From NCBI GenBank assembly GCA_963921275.4, contig OZ001293.3:3040001-3104000 (forward strand): a DNA stretch of 64,000 nt, read 5' to 3'. Below are positions 39,809-58,689 of the stretch, piece after piece. The first letter of the stretch is position 1. Each line of letters opens with the position of its first letter. The stretch is from an uncultured Hormoscilla sp. GTDB taxonomy: Bacteria; Cyanobacteriota; Cyanobacteriia; Cyanobacteriales; Desertifilaceae. Below the pieces are notes generated by a model. It saw only the letters and a list, made by a program, of their open reading frames with translations, made no database searches and was not told the DNA's origin. The position numbers were made by a program, and so were the translations under genes.

Positions 39809-39936
39809 ACCAAGTGGGATTTGATATGTGATATTTTAGGTGGGAGTGCCACCCCAGTTTCGGTAAGGTTTGATCGCAGATGCCCTGGCGCTGCTCGTTT
39901 AATTGCCTCTGAGACGATAACAGTAGATACGATCCT

Positions 39937-41320
39937 ATGCCTTCTAGACAAAATCTCGATCCCGTGCAGACCAGGCCCTTGCCAAAGTACCTGGTCTTGC
40001 TGTTTTGTCTGAGCCTGTCATGGAGTCTCGCCTTCGCGATCGCCCCTCGGACAGTAGCATTAGATCCAGTTCCCGAACGCTATCAGCTAGGACTGGAACT
40101 GTACCTAAAAAATTGTGGCACTTGCCATAGGGCCCTGCCACCAGCGGTGATGCCCAGGGAAACCTGGCAACAGCTACTACAAGATGAGCAACATTATGGA
40201 GTCGGTGCGATTCGTTCTAGCCTAACGTGGTCAAACACGGAACGCTAGCCCGGTTTCATTAGCCGGGAACTCTGACCGCATGGGGGTTAAATTCCCCTCC
40301 CCCCAGGTACGGGGGTGACACCGGTCCTCGGTGCTACGAAGCGACATCATCGTGGTGCTAAGCGAGGACTCAAATGTAGGATAACTGGCAGCCTAAGCCG
40401 GTGACGCCGCTAGGAAAGATATCCAAGGTTAGAGCAGGCAAACATGTGCAAGCCTCGTTATAAGGAACCAGCGAAATAAGGCTATATGCGCTGGCCTAAA
40501 AAGGAAATGGTAGCTAGTATTAGTTTTAGACTCTGGCTAATATAGTACTCAAATAGCTCCCGGGGTATAGTGTGGACCTAAAGGTATCGCGAAATGTTGT
40601 TAGGGAACGAAGTAACCTCTCGTGTGCTGTCCATCAGGACAAGTTAGATGTTAAGCGCAAGCCACGGGGGGAGGGATGGCCCAAGAAGCGAATGCCCGGG
40701 GTAATTCCTGGGATAACATCTACAGTAATGTAGATGATGCTGGGTAGCCAGCGCTGACGTGGGTCGGTGATACTAGGAAGCTGCTGGAATGAGTAATCCT
40801 AAAAAGCCACGGAACTAATCCGAAACGCAAGTGGAGGATAAGGTATGGATAACTGGTAAAACTGACTTGAAAATGGTGATACTAACGGTTATCAGAACAA
40901 CCACTCGCTAAACCAGGAAAGGGAAGAAAAGACAGGCGGCAAGGGCTAACGGAAGTAATTCCTATTAAGTCTACCTATGAAAAGGGCCTAGTACCCAGTA
41001 GCCGGATGCGGTGAAAATCGCAAGTCCGGTTCCTCAAGGGAGGGTCGGGAAGCGATTCCCGGCTCGACCCCATCCGACTGCAACTCCCGATCGACCCATC
41101 CCGCCTGCTAATATGGCAATACCTGCAATTTGCCTCTCGTCCCCTAGCATCAGAGGACGAGACTCCTTATAGACTGAGGAACTCTCGTTATTTTCAAGCA
41201 CTTCATCCCCGAGTCAAGTTCACCTCGCCCATTACCATCAGCAGTTGTCTACAATGTCATCCAGATGCTATGAAGTATGACTTCCGTTCCCTCTCCCCCG
41301 AATGGCTTGATGCCCAATAA
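39937..41320 (+). CDS. Diheme cytochrome c, interrupted by an ORF-less group II intron; frame restored on splicing
   Basis: Exon 1 has CGTCH and ...QHYGV; exon 2 ...LPIDPSRLLIWQYL...RYFQALHP...CLQCHP...EWLDAQ* in the same frame. Confidence 0.85.
40205..41078 (+). mobile_element. ORF-less group II intron A (874 nt)
   Basis: GTGCG start; D5 AGCCGGATGCGGTGAAAATCGCAAGTCCGGTT; D6 with bulged A; EBS1 AGACTC (40528) vs IBS1 GAGTCG. Confidence 0.92.
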
Positions 41321-41412
41321 GCTAGCATTACGGGCAGGCGATCCGCCCGCCCTACGCAACAAAAGTGGTAAGATAAAAAATAGTCTGCCCTTAAATGTAT
41401 TGATATGCTGCC

Positions 41413-44223
41413 ATGCTGAAGAAATTGCTCGGCGATCCCAACGAACGCAAACTGAATAAGTATAAGCCTTTCGTTAAAGAAGTCAACCTGTATGAGGAGG
41501 AGATAAGGCCCCTATCAGATGAGAATTTGATCGCTAAGACGGCTCAATTTAAACAGCGGCTGTCGAAAGCATCCTCAGATAATGAGTTGAAGGAGATGCT
41601 GGACGAGCTGTTACCCGAAGCATTTGCGGTGGTCCGGGAAGCAGGACGCCGGGTGTTGGGAATGCGACATTTTGATGTCCAGCTGTTGGGCGGGATGGTG
41701 CTCCACGACAGACAGATAGCTGAGATGAAGACCGGCGAGGGAAAAACCCTGGTGGCTACCCTGCCATCCTACCTGAATGCCTTGACCGGAAAGGGAGTTC
41801 ATGTAATCACGGTTAATGACTACCTGGCACGCCGGGACGCGGAATGGATGGGACAGGTTCACCGGTTCCTGGGATTATCGGTGGGTCTGATTCAACAGGG
41901 GATGGGACCGGCAGAACGCCAGAAGAACTATGGTTGCGATATAACTTACGCTACCAACAGCGAGGTGGGGTTCGATTACTTGCGGGATAATATGGCTTCT
42001 GGAATGGCGGAGGTGGTGCAACGGCCGTTCAATTTCTGCATAATTGATGAAGTAGATTCGGTATTGGTAGATGAAGCTCGCACGCCGCTGATTATATCAG
42101 GTCAGGTAGACAGACCGAGCGAAAAGTATATCCAAGCAGCAGATGTGGCCAGGGCCCTGAACAAGGAAAACCATTATGAACTGGATGAAAAGGCCCGCAA
42201 TGTTCTGTTGACAGATGAAGGGTATATTGCAGCAGAGGAGTTATTAGGGGTAACAGACCTGTTTGACCCGAAAGACCCTTGGGCCCATTTTGTCTTCAAT
42301 GGGATCAAGGCGAAGGAACTGTTTATTAAGGATGTTAACTATATTGTCCGCAATGATGAAATAGTGATCGTAGATGAGTTTACGGGACGGGTGATGCCCG
42401 GACGCCGCTGGTCGGATGGCCTGCATCAGGCGATCGAGGCGAAGGAACGGGTAGAAATTCAACCGGAAACTCAGACTTTAGCGACAATAACATATCAAAA
42501 TTTCTTTTTGCTGTACCCGAAACTGTCGGGAATGACGGGGACGGCGAAAACGGAAGAGGCGGAATTTGAAAAGATATATAGTTTGGAAGTGACGGTGGTG
42601 CCCACAAACATGCTGACGGGTCGGCGGGATCTGTCGGATATGGTATATAAGACGAAAGCAGGTAAGTGGCAAGCAGTGGCCCAAAACTGCGCGGAGTTGC
42701 ACCAGCAGGGACGCCCGATTTTGGTCGGTACCACAAGCGTGGAAAAATCGGAGGTAATCTCAAGCTTACTATCCCAGCTGCAAATTTCCCATCAGTTGCT
42801 GAATGCTAAGCCCGAAAATGTGGAACGGGAGTCGGAAATTATTGCCCAAGCAGGACGGAAAGGGGCCCTGACGATCGCCACAAACATGGCCGGACGGGGT
42901 ACGGACATCATACTGGGGGGAAACTGCGACTACATGGCCAGGCTGAAGTTGCGAGAATATTTTATGCCCCGCATTGTCCAACCAGAAGATGAAGATGGTT
43001 TGGGTGCCCTGGGGGTGCCGGGAACTAAACTAAAGGGTAAGAAGGCTCAGGGTTTTGGTCCGGGACAAAAGGTGAAAACATGGAAGGTATCGCCGCAAAT
43101 TTTCCCCACGAAACTGTCCCCAGAAACAGAAAAACGGCTGAAAGAAGCGGTAGACTTCGCAGTCAGGGAGTACGGGGAACGGAGTTTGCCAGAACTCCAG
43201 GCAGAGGATATAGTAGCAGTGGCAGCAGAGTCGGCCCCCACAGATGACCCTGGGATCCAAAAGCTGCGGGATGTTTTCCAAGCCATTCGGAATGAATATA
43301 AGGAATTTACCGATCGCGAACATGAAGATGTGGTGCAACTGGGCGGTCTCTACGTGCTGGGAACGGAACGCCATGACTCGCGCCGGATCGATAATCAATT
43401 GCGGGGTCGCGCTGGTCGTCAGGGAGACCCCGGTTCCACCAGGTTCTTCCTCAGTTTACAGGATAATTTGCTGCGCATATTTGGGGGAGATCGGGTAGCG
43501 GGGATGATGGATATGTTCCGGGTAGAGGAAGATATGCCCATCGAGTCAAAGATGCTCACCCGTTCCCTGGAAGGGGCGCAAAAGAAGGTAGAAACCCACT
43601 ACTACGATATCCGCAAGCAGGTATTTGAGTACGACGAGGTGATGAATAACCAACGTCGGGCGATCTACGCAGAACGGCGTCGGGTACTGGAGGGTCAGGA
43701 CCTGAAGGAACAGGTGATTACATACGCTGAGAAAACGATGGATGAAATCGTTGAGGCTTATGTTAACCCAGAATTGCCCTCGGATGAGTGGGACCTGCCG
43801 AAATTAGTAGGTAAGGTGAAGGAGTTTGTCAATTTACTGGCAGACCTGGAACCGGAACATCTCGAAGACCTCAGCTTTGGGGAAATGAAAACGTTCTTGC
43901 ACGAACAGGTGCGGATCGCCTATGATATGAAGGAGGCTCAGATAGATAAAGTGCAGCCAGGTATGATGCGGCAGGCAGAGCGCTTCTTTATTCTCCAACA
44001 GATCGATACCCTCTGGCGAGAACATTTGCAACAAATGGATGCCCTACGAGAATCAGTAGGTTTGCGCGGTTACGGTCAGAAAGACCCGCTGATAGAATAT
44101 AAGTCGGAAGGCTATGAGTTGTTCCTGGAAATGATGATTTCTATTCGCAGAAATGTGGTATACTCGATGTTCCAGTTCCAACCTCAGCCCCAACCAACTG
44201 TGCAAACGGCAGAAATGGTTTAA
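41413..44223 (+). CDS. secA: Preprotein translocase ATPase SecA
   Basis: [42 protein letters not shown]. Confidence 0.98.
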
Positions 44224-44560
44224 AATTGGAGGTCGTAGGGCGGACGGATCGCCTGCCCGGGAACGCTTTAGCGTTTACTACGAACGGCAAACGCTAAAGC
44301 GTTTACTACGAACAGGGAAACTCTGGGGTCCGAAAAGGGGAGGATAGCCTCTGGCACATCGCCCCAAAGCTTACCCCAAAATAATGGGCTAGGCGAACTA
44401 CATCTTCCGGTCTCCTGACTATCTTTACCCCTAGCTGGCCCAGGAGTTCCTGAGCGCCTCGGCACTGGTTCCGCTGAACAGGATAGCCCAAAGGCTTGCC
44501 CTCTATGAATTATAGATGATCATAGAGAGGCTGAGACTTTTCCGGAATTGGAGGTGTGTT

Positions 44561-46259
<1,699 letters not shown>

Positions 46260-46289
46260 TTCCCTAAATTCAGCTAGAAAGGAGCATGG

Positions 46290-46992
46290 AGATAAAACTC
46301 AAAAAGAGATGGCCATATTGTGGGGAGAGGAAGTTACGCAACCAAATATTAGTAGAACCATGCTTTGGTTAGGGATAAGCAGAAAAAAAAGACCTATGGA
46401 TATCGGGAAAGAGATGAAGAAAAACGTCAAGAGTTTTTGCGAAAACTAGATAATCTCGAAAAAAATAAGAGAATATACGTTGATGAGGCGATGTCTCAGG
46501 AGTAGTGCGATTAGCACTCTCCGGAGACATCGCAGGAATAGATAACAGAGAAGAATACCCCTATGGTTACTGCGATCCGAGGAGAAAGATTTTACGCAAT
46601 AAAATCCGGAAAACGAACCGAGAGAGTCAGTTGGATAGCGGCGCAGAGAGAAGATAAGGTCTTTGCTCCTTTAGTATTTAGTGGAGGTTGTAACAAGGAT
46701 TTATTTGAATTTTGGGTAGAATTCTGTTTAATCCCTCAACTTGAGGAGGGAGATGTAGTTATTATTGAAAATGCAAGTTTTCATAAGTCAATATTCGTTA
46801 GGGAACTAATTGAGTCGACTGGATGCGAGCTGTTATACTTACCAACCTCTTCTCCCGCTCTTAATAAAATAGAGCATTGGTGGTTTGTTCTCAAGAATTG
46901 GATGAAACAAAGGATAGACGAATTTGAGAATTTCTAAGACTTCATTGATGCTGCCTTTCGAAAATGTCCTAATGTATTTGCGTAATGCAATA
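46290..46992 (+). pseudogene. IS630-family transposase remnant
   Basis: IYVDE, SPALNKIEHWWFVLKNW; broken frames. Confidence 0.75.
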
Positions 46993-47390
46993 AAAACTCC
47001 TTCTCGGAAATCCTTCGGTCTAAACACTGTCGGCGTAAGACACTTAACTCGATTTCCGCCATATTCAACCAACTGCCATGTTTAGGAGTGTAATAAAATT
47101 CTAACTTATCCAGAATTCTACGAGCTGCCGATGGGCTAAAGGCTTTGTATAGGTGCGATTCGTTTAGCGTAAACTAACTTGACACAAGTCAAGGAGGGGG
47201 ACCGCTACCGGGATTTCGTAAGTCCCGAGAACTTACAGGTGATGGTGGTAAAAGCCCGCCCCTCCAGGTGCAGGAGTGACAGCACCCTCCCCACGGTAGC
47301 GATGGCATCAATCCGTGAAGCGGGAAGGAAAGGCGCTATGGCTGGGAGCCTAGACCGGTCATCGTCGAGCAAGTAACTATGATGAGCGTA

Positions 47391-48224
<834 letters not shown>

Positions 48225-48593
48225 TAAGCGAAGGTTTGCAACGTCGTAAAGCCTATCCAGTGTAATAAGGCTGATACACTGGCCCAAAAAGGGAAAGGAT
48301 ACTGGTCATTGGCGGATGTATACCCGACCAATAAGCACTGACAATAAACCCGGCGTAGAGAACCCGTCTAAGGTTACGACCAATCATCTGTAGGAACGAA
48401 GTAACCCGGTTGTAGCACTCTCCATCACCGGTCGATAGATGGAGTAGCCACCACAGGCGTAACATCTGCTCTCCGGAAGGCAGGACGCAACTGGGGGAGA
48501 TTGAGTGGAGAAGCAAATGCCTGTCTGTAATGGATAGAATAAGCTGACGCCCTCACGGTCTCGTCAATTGTGAAGTTGTAAGTAGTAGTGAAT

Positions 48594-51255
48594 ATGTCAC
48601 GGAACTTAGTCGAAAGACAAGAGTATGAATGGAAGACTGTCGCCTGGCGAAAGCTGGAAAGGATAGTTTTTAAGCTGCAAAAGCGAATTTACAGAGCGGC
48701 ACTGGAAGGTAATAAGCAGAAGGTTCGTAAGCTCCAAGGATTACTAAATAGGTCATGGTCCGCGAAGATGATAGCGGTACGGCAGGTAACACAACAAAAC
48801 CAGGGAAAGAAGACGGCTGGTGTGGATGGTGTGAAAGCACTGACCCCAAAAGAACGTATCGAACTGGTAGGTCAAATTAAAGTTACTCGAAAGGCGAAGG
48901 CAAAAGCCACACGAAGAGTGTGGATACCGAAGCCACGAAGGGAGGAGAAGCGGCCATTAGGAATACCAACGATGCACGACCGCGCACTTCAGGGATTGGT
49001 TAAAGAAGCGCTAGAGCCTGAATGGGAAGCGTATATGGAAGCCAATTCCTACGGGTTTAGACCAGGTAGGGGATGTCATGATGCAGTTGCAGCGATATTC
49101 GCTAGCATCAGTCAAAAATCGAAATGGGTGTTAGATGCGGATATTGCGAAGTGTTTCGACGAAATTGACCATTCCGCGCTCCTAAAGAAATTGAATACTA
49201 CGTCACCAATCCGTAAACAAATACGGGCATGGCTAAAAGCTGGGGTGATGGACCGGGGAAGGATGGAATCCACAGAAGCCGGAACTCCCCAAGGTGGGGT
49301 TATATCTCCATTACTAGCCAATATAGCTTTACATGGGCTGGAAGGGGTAGTAATGGGTCTCGCTCACACAAAAAGAGAGAAGGAGAAGTTAACCGTAGTA
49401 AGATATGCGGATGACTTTGTGGTAATACATAATGACCGGTCGATGATTGAGGAAGCTCAAGGAGTGATTGAGGAGTGGTTGAAGGGAATAGGGCTGGAGC
49501 AAAAAGCCGAGAAAACGAAGATATCCCACACATTGGAAGGAGAGAGCCCTGGATTTGACTTCTTAGGGTTCAATATCCGACAATATAAAGTAGGGAAACA
49601 CAGAAGCGGCAAACTCTGTAACGGAACCCCCCTAGGATTCAAGACCCTAATCAAGCCTAGCGATAAATCCATAAGGAATCATAAAGAGCAGCTATCAGAG
49701 ATAGTTCGCCGCCATAAAGGGGCACCGCAAACGGCCTTAATAGCAAGACTAAACCCGATGATAAGGGGATGGAGCAACTATTATAGGACGGTGGTAAGTA
49801 AAGAAACTTACAGCTCTATGGATAACTACTTATGGAAGTTGTTATGGCGATGGGCAAAGAGAAGACATCCTAACAAAACGGGCAAATGAATTGCTAGTAA
49901 GTACTGGGGTATGACCGGGAAAGACCGGTGGAGGTTCGCTGGCAAGTCTAAAGAAGATGGAGGAATGAAGCTAAACCGATACTCTGAAACTGAAATAATC
50001 GGATGGGGTCGAGCCGAAAATCGCTTCCCGACCCTCCCTTGAGGAACCGGACTTGCGATTTTCACCGCATCCGGCTACTGGGTACTAGGCCCTTTTCATA
50101 GGTAGACTTAATAGGAATTACTTCCGTTAGCCCTTGCCGCCTGTCTTTTCTTCCCTTTCCTGGTTTAGCGAGTGGTTGTTCTGATAACCGTTAGTATCAC
50201 CATTTTCAAGTCAGTTTTACCAGTTATCCATACCTTATCCTCCACTTGCGTTTCGGATTAGTTCCGTGGCTTTTTAGGATTACTCATTCCAGCAGCTTCC
50301 TAGTATCACCGACCCACGTCAGCGCTGGCTACCCAGCATCATCTACATTACTGTAGATGTTATCCCAGGAATTACCCCGGGCATTCGCTTCTTGGGCCAT
50401 CCCTCCCCCCGTGGCTTGCGCTTAACATCTAACTTGTCCTGATGGACAGCACACGAGAGGTTACTTCGTTCCCTAACAACATTTCGCGATACCTTTAGGT
50501 CCACACTATACCCCGGGAGCTATTTGAGTACTATATTAGCCAGAGTCTAAAACTAATACTAGCTACCATTTCCTTTTTAGGCCAGCGCATATAGCCTTAT
50601 TTCGCTGGTTCTTTATAACGAGGCTTGCACATGTTTGCCTGCTCTAACCTTGGATATCTTTCCTAGCGGCGTCACCGGCTTAGGCTGCCAGTTATCCTAC
50701 ATTTGAGTCCTCGCTTAGCACCACGATGATGTCGCTTCGTAGCACCGAGGACCGGTGTCACCCCCGTACCTGGGGGGAGGGGAATTTAACCCCCATGCGG
50801 TCAGAGTTCCCGGCTAATGAAACCGGGCTAGCGTTCCGTGTTTGACCACGTTAGGCTAGAACGAATCGCACAGACACGTAAAGGTTAAGGGGACAGCTAG
50901 CCCGTTTGACGGTAATCTGGTTTATTGGAGCAAAAGACTGAGAAAAAGCCCGGATGTGAGCGCTAGAGTTATCAGACTGCTAAAAGAGCAGGATGGTAAG
51001 TGTGTGCACTGCGGACTGAAATTCAAAGATGGCGACAAATGGGAGGTTGACCATATTCTACCAGTTTCTAAAGGAGGTAAAGACTGGTATACCAACCTAC
51101 AGTTGCTGCATGATTATTGCCATGATGTAAAGTCTGCCAGAGATGGTGACAAAGGCCGTATCCATGACAAGGATGGCGAAACTGAGGAGCCGGATGAGGT
51201 GAAAGTCTCACGTCCGGTTCTGAAGACGAGTCGGCGGGGTGACCCGTTGGCTTAG
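48594..51255 (+). pseudogene. ltrA: Group II intron reverse transcriptase/maturase/HNH, inactivated by TGA at 49887 and antisense intron B
   Basis: RPLGIPT, GTPQGGVISPLLANI, RYADDF, GFDFLGF, RGWSNYY; resumes RHVKVKG...CVHCG...EVDHILP...HDYCH. Confidence 0.92.
49998..50871 (-). mobile_element. ORF-less group II intron B, near-identical to A, antisense within the RT gene
   Basis: Reverse complement of 40205-41078 with only a few substitutions seen; IBS1 GTGTCT vs EBS1 AGACTC. Confidence 0.93.
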
Positions 51256-52351
51256 TTTAATAGAAGCTTTCACATGAGTATTAAGATGATCTTGAACGAC
51301 GAGAATTTTCCGCGCTTGAGGAAAACATTCATCAACCAAATACTTCATCTGGTGAGCATAGTCGTAAGAAGTCCGTTGGTCAGGGGTTCTCGTTTCTGAA
51401 ATTAACTGTTTGGAACATTCATCAAAACAAACCAAAGGGTAATCTGAATCATAAGCACGGGTGTACAGGTCTAAAACTTCTTCCATCTGACAGACAAATT
51501 CAGCACTTTCTTGAGGTGGAATTATCCAACATTCCTGAAACCAAGGTTTAATTTCGTTTTTTTTAATACCTGTCGTACCGTTTCATGGGAAAGGCTTTCT
51601 ACATATCCTAAAGCTACCATTTGATCGGCGAGGAGTCGTAAAGTCCAACGACTATACCCAGTCGGTGCTTGGCTGCAAGCTAATGCAATTAAATGAGCTT
51701 CGACTTCTCCATCGATACGCCGTAACTGAGATGAGAGGTGGGGACGGGTGGGTTATTGCTTTTTCTAAACCCTCTTCTACAAACCTTTGTCGAACTCTTT
51801 CAATCGTTCTGGTACTAATGTTCAAAGCTTGGCTAATTTCATTATCTGTCCACCCTCCATCGGTTTGATTAATATCGGCTTTAAGTAAGATGCGAGCATA
51901 ATTAATTTTCCTCGCCGCAGCTTTTCCTGTTGTAGTTAGCTTTTCTAGACTTTGGCGTTCTTCTTCTGTTAGGGAAACTATATATCGTTTGGCTGGCATG
52001 GTTTCTCACTCTTTGTTCTCTTCTCTTCTATTATCTGTCATTATTACTTGATAGACTAATAGCAATCGACAATATTTTTTGCAGACAACCCTTCTTTTTT
52101 TTCAATGCTGACCTGATGTACTATATTATTAAAAGGGAAAGGAGTAATTAGAGGATTGAAATTTATGAGGGGGCAAACCCCCTATTGTTGACAAAAACCG
52201 GGGTGATGGATTGAGGTAATTTTCAGATTAAACTCCAATTGAGAATTCAGGTGTCGGTAATACCCATAGCAGAAATCGTAAAGGTTGATCGCCCCCCGGC
52301 TCTGTGCCTAGAATAAACTTAAATAGACTAAGATGTTAGGAGTATTAAGCG

Positions 52352-56907: not shown

Positions 56908-57011
56908 GAGGTGACCCGGAGTCCACGCCTGCTACAAGCATCCCGTATTGCTGCCACCTTCCGGTCCTGACAAGGTTTGGGTGTTGTCACCGCATGAGTC
57001 CAGGTCTTCTC
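56908..57011 (-). ncRNA. ffs: Signal recognition particle (4.5S) RNA, copy 1
   Basis: Minus strand TGTCAGGACCGGAAGGTGGCAGCA in a long hairpin; extended -10 TGTTATGGT upstream. Confidence 0.9.
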
Positions 57012-57312: not shown

Positions 57313-57414
57313 GGAGACCTGAATTCCACGCCTGCTACAAGCATCCCGTATTGCTGCTACTTCCGTCCTGACAAGGTTTTGGCGTTGTAACCGCATGGGT
57401 TCTCCAGGTCTTCT
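57313..57414 (-). ncRNA. ffs: SRP RNA, diverged copy 2
   Basis: Minus strand TGTCAGGACGGAAGTAGCAGCAATACGGGATGCTTGTAGCAGGCGTGG; extended -10 TGTTATAGT. Confidence 0.8.
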
Positions 57415-58065: not shown

Positions 58066-58229
58066 ATTAAACTAAGCCAGGGAGTCACCTCCCCGACTCG
58101 TCTTCAGAACCGGACGTGAGACTTTCGCCTCATCCGGCTCCTCAGTAATGCCATCCTTGTCACGGATACGGCTACTACCATCGCTGGCAGTCTTTATATC
58201 ATGGCAGTGTTTGTGCAACAGTTGTAAGT
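58066..58229 (-). mobile_element. 3' fragment (HNH tail, D5, D6) of a group II intron related to E
   Basis: Minus strand LQLLHKHCHDIK...GAGCCGGATGAGGCGAAAGTCTCACGTCCGGTTC...GGCTTAGTTTAAT. Confidence 0.88.
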
Positions 58230-58689
58230 CTGGCTGCCTGACACATCTGCATGAAAACTAGGCGCATCAGGTTTTACACTGTATTGAGCGGATACGCGAA
58301 AACCATATTTGGTCGTAGTAATCATACTTGGCTTTGAAGGAAGCAAAACATGGTTGTGGATCTCTAGGCAACAATGGTACTGGCATTAAAAGTAGCCGAC
58401 CTTTATTGACTACTCTTTTGAGCCAGCGCCAACCAATTTTGAGATAACTGAGACCTCGTTGCCAATGGGGATCTACCTGCTGGCGTAAGCCTTCAAGTTG
58501 AACAGCCATGCCCTGGGTAGTGGCGTAAAGCAGGGCAATGGCAGCAACTAAGTAAAGCCGCTCAAGCGCTTGAACTGAGCGGATGCGGGAGTCTTCCAGT
58601 TCAAAGGCCCCCGACTTGCTATCCAAAAATAGTTCCTCTACCCGAAAGCGCAAACCATATTGCCACAGAGTTTGTAAACTGGGGGACTT
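58230..58689 (-). mobile_element. Partial second copy of the IS4-family element
   Basis: Near-identical reverse complement of ~35684-36142 including the TIR. Confidence 0.92.

Follow-up and report, generated by a model that had tools for sequence, protein, structure and literature searches.

The stretch of DNA considered here (the window) comprises 64,000 nucleotides of the genome of an uncultured Hormoscilla sp. (GenBank assembly GCA_963921275.4, contig OZ001293.3, positions 3,040,001 to 3,104,000) and contains four group II introns that lack an open reading frame (ORF). Elements A (40205-41075, plus strand), C (44573-45440, plus), D (47391-48225, plus) and B (50001-50871, minus) are 871, 868, 835 and 871 nt long, respectively. 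A and B belong to the largest family of such elements in the genome (F0, 139 copies), D belongs to the second largest (F1, 72 copies), and C to a small family (F5, 7 copies) that contains two variants of exon-binding site 1 (EBS1). All four start with GTGCGATTCGTTCTAG, an end that is fixed by empty alleles and whose GTGCG agrees with the GUGYG rule, and each is closed by a match to the Rfam model RF00029 for domains V and VI (D5/D6) at 44-48 bits (cut-off 40). The sequence of A is the consensus of its family, with 100% matches elsewhere in the genome and a 3' end in ...CCCCATCC, and B differs from A at 3 positions. No remnant of a reverse transcriptase (RT) was found by tblastn in representatives of the 41 families of the genome (best E 0.057), and the longest ATG-initiated ORFs are 39 aa in the A family, 44 aa in the D family and 45 aa in the C family. 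A first-pass annotation, made from the letters of the window alone, had described four elements without an ORF that share a start and D5/D6, two of them (A and B) nearly identical, and this description holds. It did not see the scale of the swarm to which the elements belong, the second and third exon-binding sites (EBS2 and EBS3), the nesting of D and B within a further intron, or the host gene of A.

The exact ends of the elements are set by empty alleles within the same genome: the sites of D and B themselves and five copies of the repeat around C in which the site is empty. The end offsets of the families agree in 29/29 A-family and 11/11 D-family copies that have an empty allele, and insertion is precise and without target duplication. 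For the 41 family representatives the ends were placed from the 3' A motif, and for A, C, and D the empty alleles served as a check on this placement. Every representative carries the 3' tail A-CCCC-NNNY, with the conserved A located 9 nt from the end versus 8 nt in the RT-bearing introns. This A is presumably the branch A, in which case the 3' geometry would be shifted; the bulge in domain VI was not visible in a minimum free energy fold read by eye. The elements also depart from the AY rule for the 3' end (A and B end in AUCC, C and D in GACU, and only nine of the 41 families end in AU). However, the gamma base pairs with the last intron base in 40 of the 41 families, and the RNA is therefore regarded as clearly of group II, with a boundary that deviates from the usual one. 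Domain V with its catalytic AGC triad is followed by domain VI, and the canonical D5 pattern fits 135/139 F0 and 71/72 F1 copies (206/211 together) but only 52/93 copies of the minor families; several of the remaining 41 share a recurrent mispaired variant. EBS1, EBS2, and EBS3 pair with intron-binding sites IBS1 and IBS2 and with the +1 base, the group IIB arrangement, in a permutation test across 38 families (described below). Overall, each of the four elements is a genuine group IIB intron without an ORF.

Element A is located in sense within a dihaem cytochrome c gene. The 5' exon (39913-40204, plus; a stop-to-stop frame whose start codon is not fixed) matches positions 1-34 of PF09626 (E 2.2e-10) and the 3' exon (41076-41320, plus) matches positions 42-116 (E 4.1e-9). 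Excision in silico produces one open frame of 178 codons with two CxxCH motifs, and alleles without the intron are seen in the genomes G001 and G004 and in sequencing run X6. C is inserted in a multicopy repeat. D and B are both located within R1, an outer RT-bearing group II intron (47153-51261, plus; 2403 nt minus the inserts; D5/D6 at 51184-51261) of which the genome holds nine full copies and an empty site: D is found in domain I after nt 238 of R1, and B lies antisense in the R1 ORF. The first-pass annotation judged this local RT dead. The ORF (48588-49889, plus; Pfam RVT_N, RVT_1, and GIIM) indeed stops prematurely after 433 aa, at a stop codon private to this copy, and is interrupted further on by B; the detached HNH endonuclease part (50956-51255, plus; Pfam HNH, E 5e-14) reads via D5 into D6. 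On the other side, RVT_N, RVT_1 with an intact YADD motif, and most of the maturase domain are kept, which leaves the verdict only partly upheld. D is inserted in seven of the nine full R1 copies and an antisense A copy in eight, at the same sites as in the window. The D inserts fall into several haplotypes, which suggests separate insertions, so that D may have entered R1 by repeated homing events.

A hidden Markov model made from the D5/D6 motifs of the genome itself yielded 492 matches, 462 of which span D5 and divide into 379 ORF-less-type and 83 RT-type matches. RT sequence is enclosed by none of the 303 ORF-less-type matches with a paired 5' end versus 47 of the 53 RT-type matches. When a contiguous 5' end was demanded, 311 of 380 matches were kept, corresponding to 304 distinct full-length ORF-less elements, and 69 nested or truncated matches or matches with a variant start were dropped. 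At an identity threshold of 94% these 304 copies form 41 families with 139 (A and B), 72 (D), 16, 8, 8, and 7 (C) members, followed by smaller ones. The first-pass annotation had proposed such a genome-wide census as a check, and its outcome is that ORF-less elements make up about four fifths of the roughly 460 intron-like elements and that DNA derived from them accounts for 5.1% of the chromosome (C1; 7.7% for all group II DNA). Of 140 A-like copies, 61 carry exactly the consensus sequence, in line with the recent mobility that had been proposed, and F0 and F1 appear to have burst very recently.

DNA of other introns borders 64 of the 304 copies. Tandem A-family copies are found at the 3' junction of another copy (C1:824934-826675 and others), and copies also occur in domain IV of their own family. 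Six A-family copies (C1 positions 2174755, 2454749, 4220306, 4604214, 4785388, and 6423952) are located antisense to the host ORF at one shared site in the repeated N-terminal domain of large multicopy-repeat proteins, which they break. An RT-error signature was considered for the mutations that separate the copies and was rejected: copies of A show 35 G>A and 28 C>T changes and copies of D show 21 and 17, respectively, a roughly strand-symmetric pattern that looks more like decay after insertion. A search for a replication-strand bias in 14 bins showed no clear GC skew or orientation pattern.

EBS1 of A (AGACUC, 40528-40533, plus) is located in the loop of the Id3 hairpin, and the equivalent loops hold EBS1 of C (GGUUAG, 44901-44906), D (UGCACU, 47712-47717), and B (50548-50543). 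The hairpin covaries, with compensatory changes in six out of nine pairs among six sequences, and each EBS1 pairs at five of six positions with its own 5' flank (Watson-Crick pairs only in A and B, one G-U pair included in C and D), just as the first-pass annotation had described. EBS2 of A (AUAAGG, 40460-40465, plus) was located by a register scan that peaks at -8; it pairs with flank positions -8 to -13, at five of six positions in this copy. A change in EBS2 of B was considered as an adaptation to its site and rejected, as it is a private mutation and the other seven copies at the site have the consensus. The complementarity extends to the other copies. Across 38 of the 41 families (three were omitted for mixed or deleted EBS) cognate pairing averages 5.02/6 for EBS1, 4.01/6 for EBS2, and 0.90/1 for EBS3, compared with 2.66, 2.29, and 0.45 after permutation, and none of 2000 permutations reached the cognate values, the families being related rather than fully independent. 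Three families whose EBS differ from one another have A at -15 with frequencies of 0.70, 0.67, and 0.57, and A or C recurs at -14; no clear base preference was detected past +1 in the same three families.

The first-pass annotation had called the EBS1 sequences of the elements individually retargeted. Rewriting of EBS1 copy by copy for every new site could draw on the 35 distinct EBS1 sequences among 38 families, on the two EBS1/EBS3 variants within the family of C, which match their flanks and are only about 21 changes apart, and on a relative of A from G004 (92% identity) whose EBS1, UCUAGA, has matching flanks. At the level of the copy, however, the idea is refuted. One and the same EBS1 loop is shared by 139/139 F0 copies, spread over 125 distinct sites. 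In F1 (63 distinct sites), 72/72 copies have kept the hexamer and the bases directly next to it, and a change in the EBS2 region was found in only 2 of the 139 F0 copies. The sites average 5.1 of 6 pairs; mismatches are thus tolerated, not corrected, and the relaxed specificity noted in the first-pass annotation is borne out. Per-copy rewriting is accordingly given next to no weight, and retargeting goes by lineage (family), not by copy. The window shows three EBS1 sequences because its elements belong to three families.

In-frame insertions of minor families split eno (C1:1800238), zwf (C1:6447684), prfC (C1:2134479), a recJ gene, and an iscA-like gene, those in eno, zwf, and prfC being in sense. 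A tblastn search of this genome did not find a second close copy of eno, zwf, or prfC, and the eno site is empty in all four relatives compared. Separately, in one relative (L051 in G004) the enolase gene is interrupted by the start of a group II intron, some 90 bases downstream from the position that is split in the present genome. Among copies within predicted single-copy ORFs 44 are in sense and 18 antisense (p 0.001), an excess to which F1 (13:0) contributes along with the minor families (14:5, p 0.06). The classification of the coding context was conservative, calling 49% of random positions coding and missing the host gene of A itself. That the only eno, zwf, and prfC genes found are split in frame is an indirect argument for splicing of the introns in vivo. 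An antisense A copy (L020, C1:4362037-4362907) breaks a gene which, from its sequence, we take to be phosphoribulokinase-like; a paralogue with 45% identity is located at C1:5358172.

Long matches to the ORF-less lineage were found in all four genomes of the same genus, in which the 3' motif occurs 16, 46, 77, and 123 times (3-5 control matches), and among the matches listed the named records that fit the D5/D6 pattern are Hormoscilla metagenome-assembled genomes only. The lineage thus extends across the genus. A query of domains I to III against 400 other cyanobacterial genomes, with two candidates scored per genome, returned one 56-nt match only, and six inspected motif matches out of eight in genome G005 all lacked D5. 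Genome G017 carries a group II-like element of another lineage without an ORF (L061:123-577, minus; about 455 nt) downstream of a gene stop, with an Rfam score of 30.9 bits that is below the cut-off.

The presence of the lineage in related genomes also bears on the possibility that the repeats are an assembly artefact, which the very many near-identical copies on one long contig might suggest. Short-read contigs from three runs span the 5' junction of A by 24 bases without differences and one spans the 3' junction by 26 bases, and the unique flanks follow the EBS code. Moreover, the core of A (window 40626-40915; runs X1 and X3) is covered 227-266 times more deeply than the unique flank. The chance of an artefact is practically nil. 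The depth ratio compares with about 145 copies in the assembly, a 1.6-1.8-fold excess that may come from segregating insertions or related strains; depth is no copy number, and the source sample may be among these runs.

The first-pass annotation reasoned that the RT has to act in trans, and suggested a search for an intact RT elsewhere. A total of 21 near-full-length RT ORFs with YADD (at least 540 aa) were found in the genome, in 12 clusters with no mutual identity below 66%; 12 of the 21 fit the HNH motif used in this study. They include an uninterrupted R1 ORF of 598 aa at C1:2408108 that scores above the TIGR04416 cut-off. With these ORFs the puzzle posed by a damaged local RT disappears. 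In the PDB, the R1-type RT is matched best by 6ME0 (E 1.7e-114), which is presumably the Thermosynechococcus elongatus enzyme. The need for an RT in trans is accepted here, and we infer trans-mobility itself, most likely through the RT of distantly related introns. The best candidate helper would be the RT subfamily at C1:2537251, 2732012, and 839390 together with its relative R1, and domain IV of F0 carries a degenerate version of their ORF-start region (alignment score to the RT ORF start 45 versus a maximum of 36 in 100 shuffles). A 3' fragment of an RT-type intron with the HNH end and D5/D6 is also found in the window (58066-58270, minus), where no paired 5' end accompanies it.

Several observations weigh against this assignment and against a swarm that splices and jumps with borrowed enzymes. 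The ribozyme cores of 32 ORF-less elements are 77.5% identical to each other but only 53.5% (47.5-58.8) to those of 20 RT-bearing introns, so that recognition by the resident RTs cannot be taken for granted. Of 12 families examined for the domain IV match, just 3 show it at a significant level, and F1 lacks it (p 0.46). The flanks of RT-bearing introns show a weaker preference for A or G at -15/-14. Within single-copy ORFs, F0 does not favor the sense orientation (17 copies in sense and 13 antisense; p 1.0 versus predicted empty targets), and the only RNA run listed matches weakly. By core identity, the swarm is an independent and older lineage, not a close deletion derivative of a resident RT-bearing intron.

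The same divergence from all 20 RT-intron ribozymes compared and the different 3' geometry would suit a dedicated helper of the ORF-less lineage, a free-standing or non-intron RT or maturase, or one outside the assembly (the genome is 96.7% complete). The genome does contain one 600-aa RT-like ORF of another type (C1:1775405-1777204, minus) that lacks YADD and is followed by a distinct D5/D6. However, domain IV of F0 and F9 keeps the ORF-start region of the resident RT introns, those introns supply the intact YADD ORFs counted above, and no RT-bearing member of the lineage was found in this genome or inside the elements of 26 relative loci. A dedicated helper is therefore considered improbable.

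Spread by a DNA route (gene conversion or carriage in other mobile elements, with copies that are not retro-mobile) would fit the copies flanked by other intron DNA, and the same-site antisense A copy in eight of nine R1 copies could represent one insertion carried along. It is hard to reconcile with the 125 F0 and 63 F1 distinct sites, each picked by EBS pairing, and with the D haplotypes in R1, and it is held to be a very remote alternative. An RNA-mediated route is preferred. Non-autonomous group IIB introns with a family-specific EBS and helper RTs, a mechanism already known, very probably account for the swarm. A copy would be transcribed and splice out as a ribozyme, probably aided by a borrowed maturase, and the excised RNA would bind the RT from one of the RT-bearing introns of the genome. 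Reverse-splicing would occur into DNA where EBS1 (-1 to -6), EBS2 (-8 to -13), and EBS3 (+1) pair loosely, the protein probably being what reads the weak preference for A at -15/-14, and reverse transcription would then complete the insertion of the ORF-less copy. Now and then a change in the EBS loops would found a further family and open a new set of targets to it.

We tentatively propose, as a reading with a little less than an even claim to acceptance, that the swarm is a bacterial parasite of distantly related intron RTs resembling a short interspersed nuclear element, with the highest intron load found reported for a bacterium and still jumping, and that enolase, G6PDH, and RF3 have been made dependent on a shared trans splicing apparatus in a drift-prone symbiont. 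If true, the genome would serve as a living model for the invasion by introns that supposedly came before the spliceosome. Independently of this reading, the hundreds of natural target sites represent a ready-made EBS/IBS code, and the split core genes together with the 12 RT clusters open an old question to direct tests, namely in what way introns without an ORF arrive at a single splicing and mobility machinery used in common. The surprise is limited, as the mechanism is already known from T. elongatus. Elsewhere in the window, a signal recognition particle RNA gene and a degenerate duplicate lie about 400 bases apart (56910-57006 and approximately 57320-57410, minus).

Bacterial group II introns that lack an ORF have been described as rare and short-lived (PMC4424553). 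No description of this swarm was found in the literature searched, although the supplement of Miura 2022 (PMC8919778) may list related genomes, and the word "intron" is absent from the main text of PMC6520454. Arthrospira platensis is, like the host of the swarm, a filamentous cyanobacterium with a very high load of CL-type introns; 101 group II introns per genome, the largest number in one survey (PMC8919778), and "at least 150" (PMC4649490) have been given for it, compared with 462 D5-containing matches (about 380 of the ORF-less type) in the present genome, an approximate comparison since the counting methods differ. In Trichodesmium erythraeum ORF-less introns in protein genes likewise need trans factors and an inner intron is located in domain I of a host intron (PMC4649490). 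Ten of its 17 introns that splice in vivo are ORF-less (PMC4649490), whereas the swarm consists of hundreds of young near-identical copies whose splicing is presumed.

The closest parallel is the TeI3/TeI4 group (IIB1) of T. elongatus, in which ORF-less copies also outnumber RT-bearing ones, families are set by EBS1, EBS2, and EBS3, and twintrons occur (PMC2882425). The ORF-less TeI3 introns (17 copies in four families, 85-100% identical to RT introns) share with the swarm an ORF-start remnant within domain IV (in some families of the swarm), the A-14/A-15 preference, the lack of an ORF, and helper RT introns in the same genome, and selection for A-14/A-15 was reported for TeI3c mobilized in trans by the TeI4c protein (PMC2882425). 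The differences lie in size (304 copies in 41 families versus 17 in four, more than 10 times larger), in kinship (ribozymes about 54% versus 85-100% identical to RT introns, so that the swarm does not group with close deletion derivatives), and in the A-CCCC-NNNY tail, which is one base longer and mostly does not end in AY. Many insertions of the swarm are in protein genes, and its host, judging by the sponge-metagenome runs and the names of its relatives, is presumably no thermophile. Overall, the scale of the swarm, its divergence from the helpers, and its 3' geometry are new, whereas the mechanism is very probably the one known from T. elongatus.

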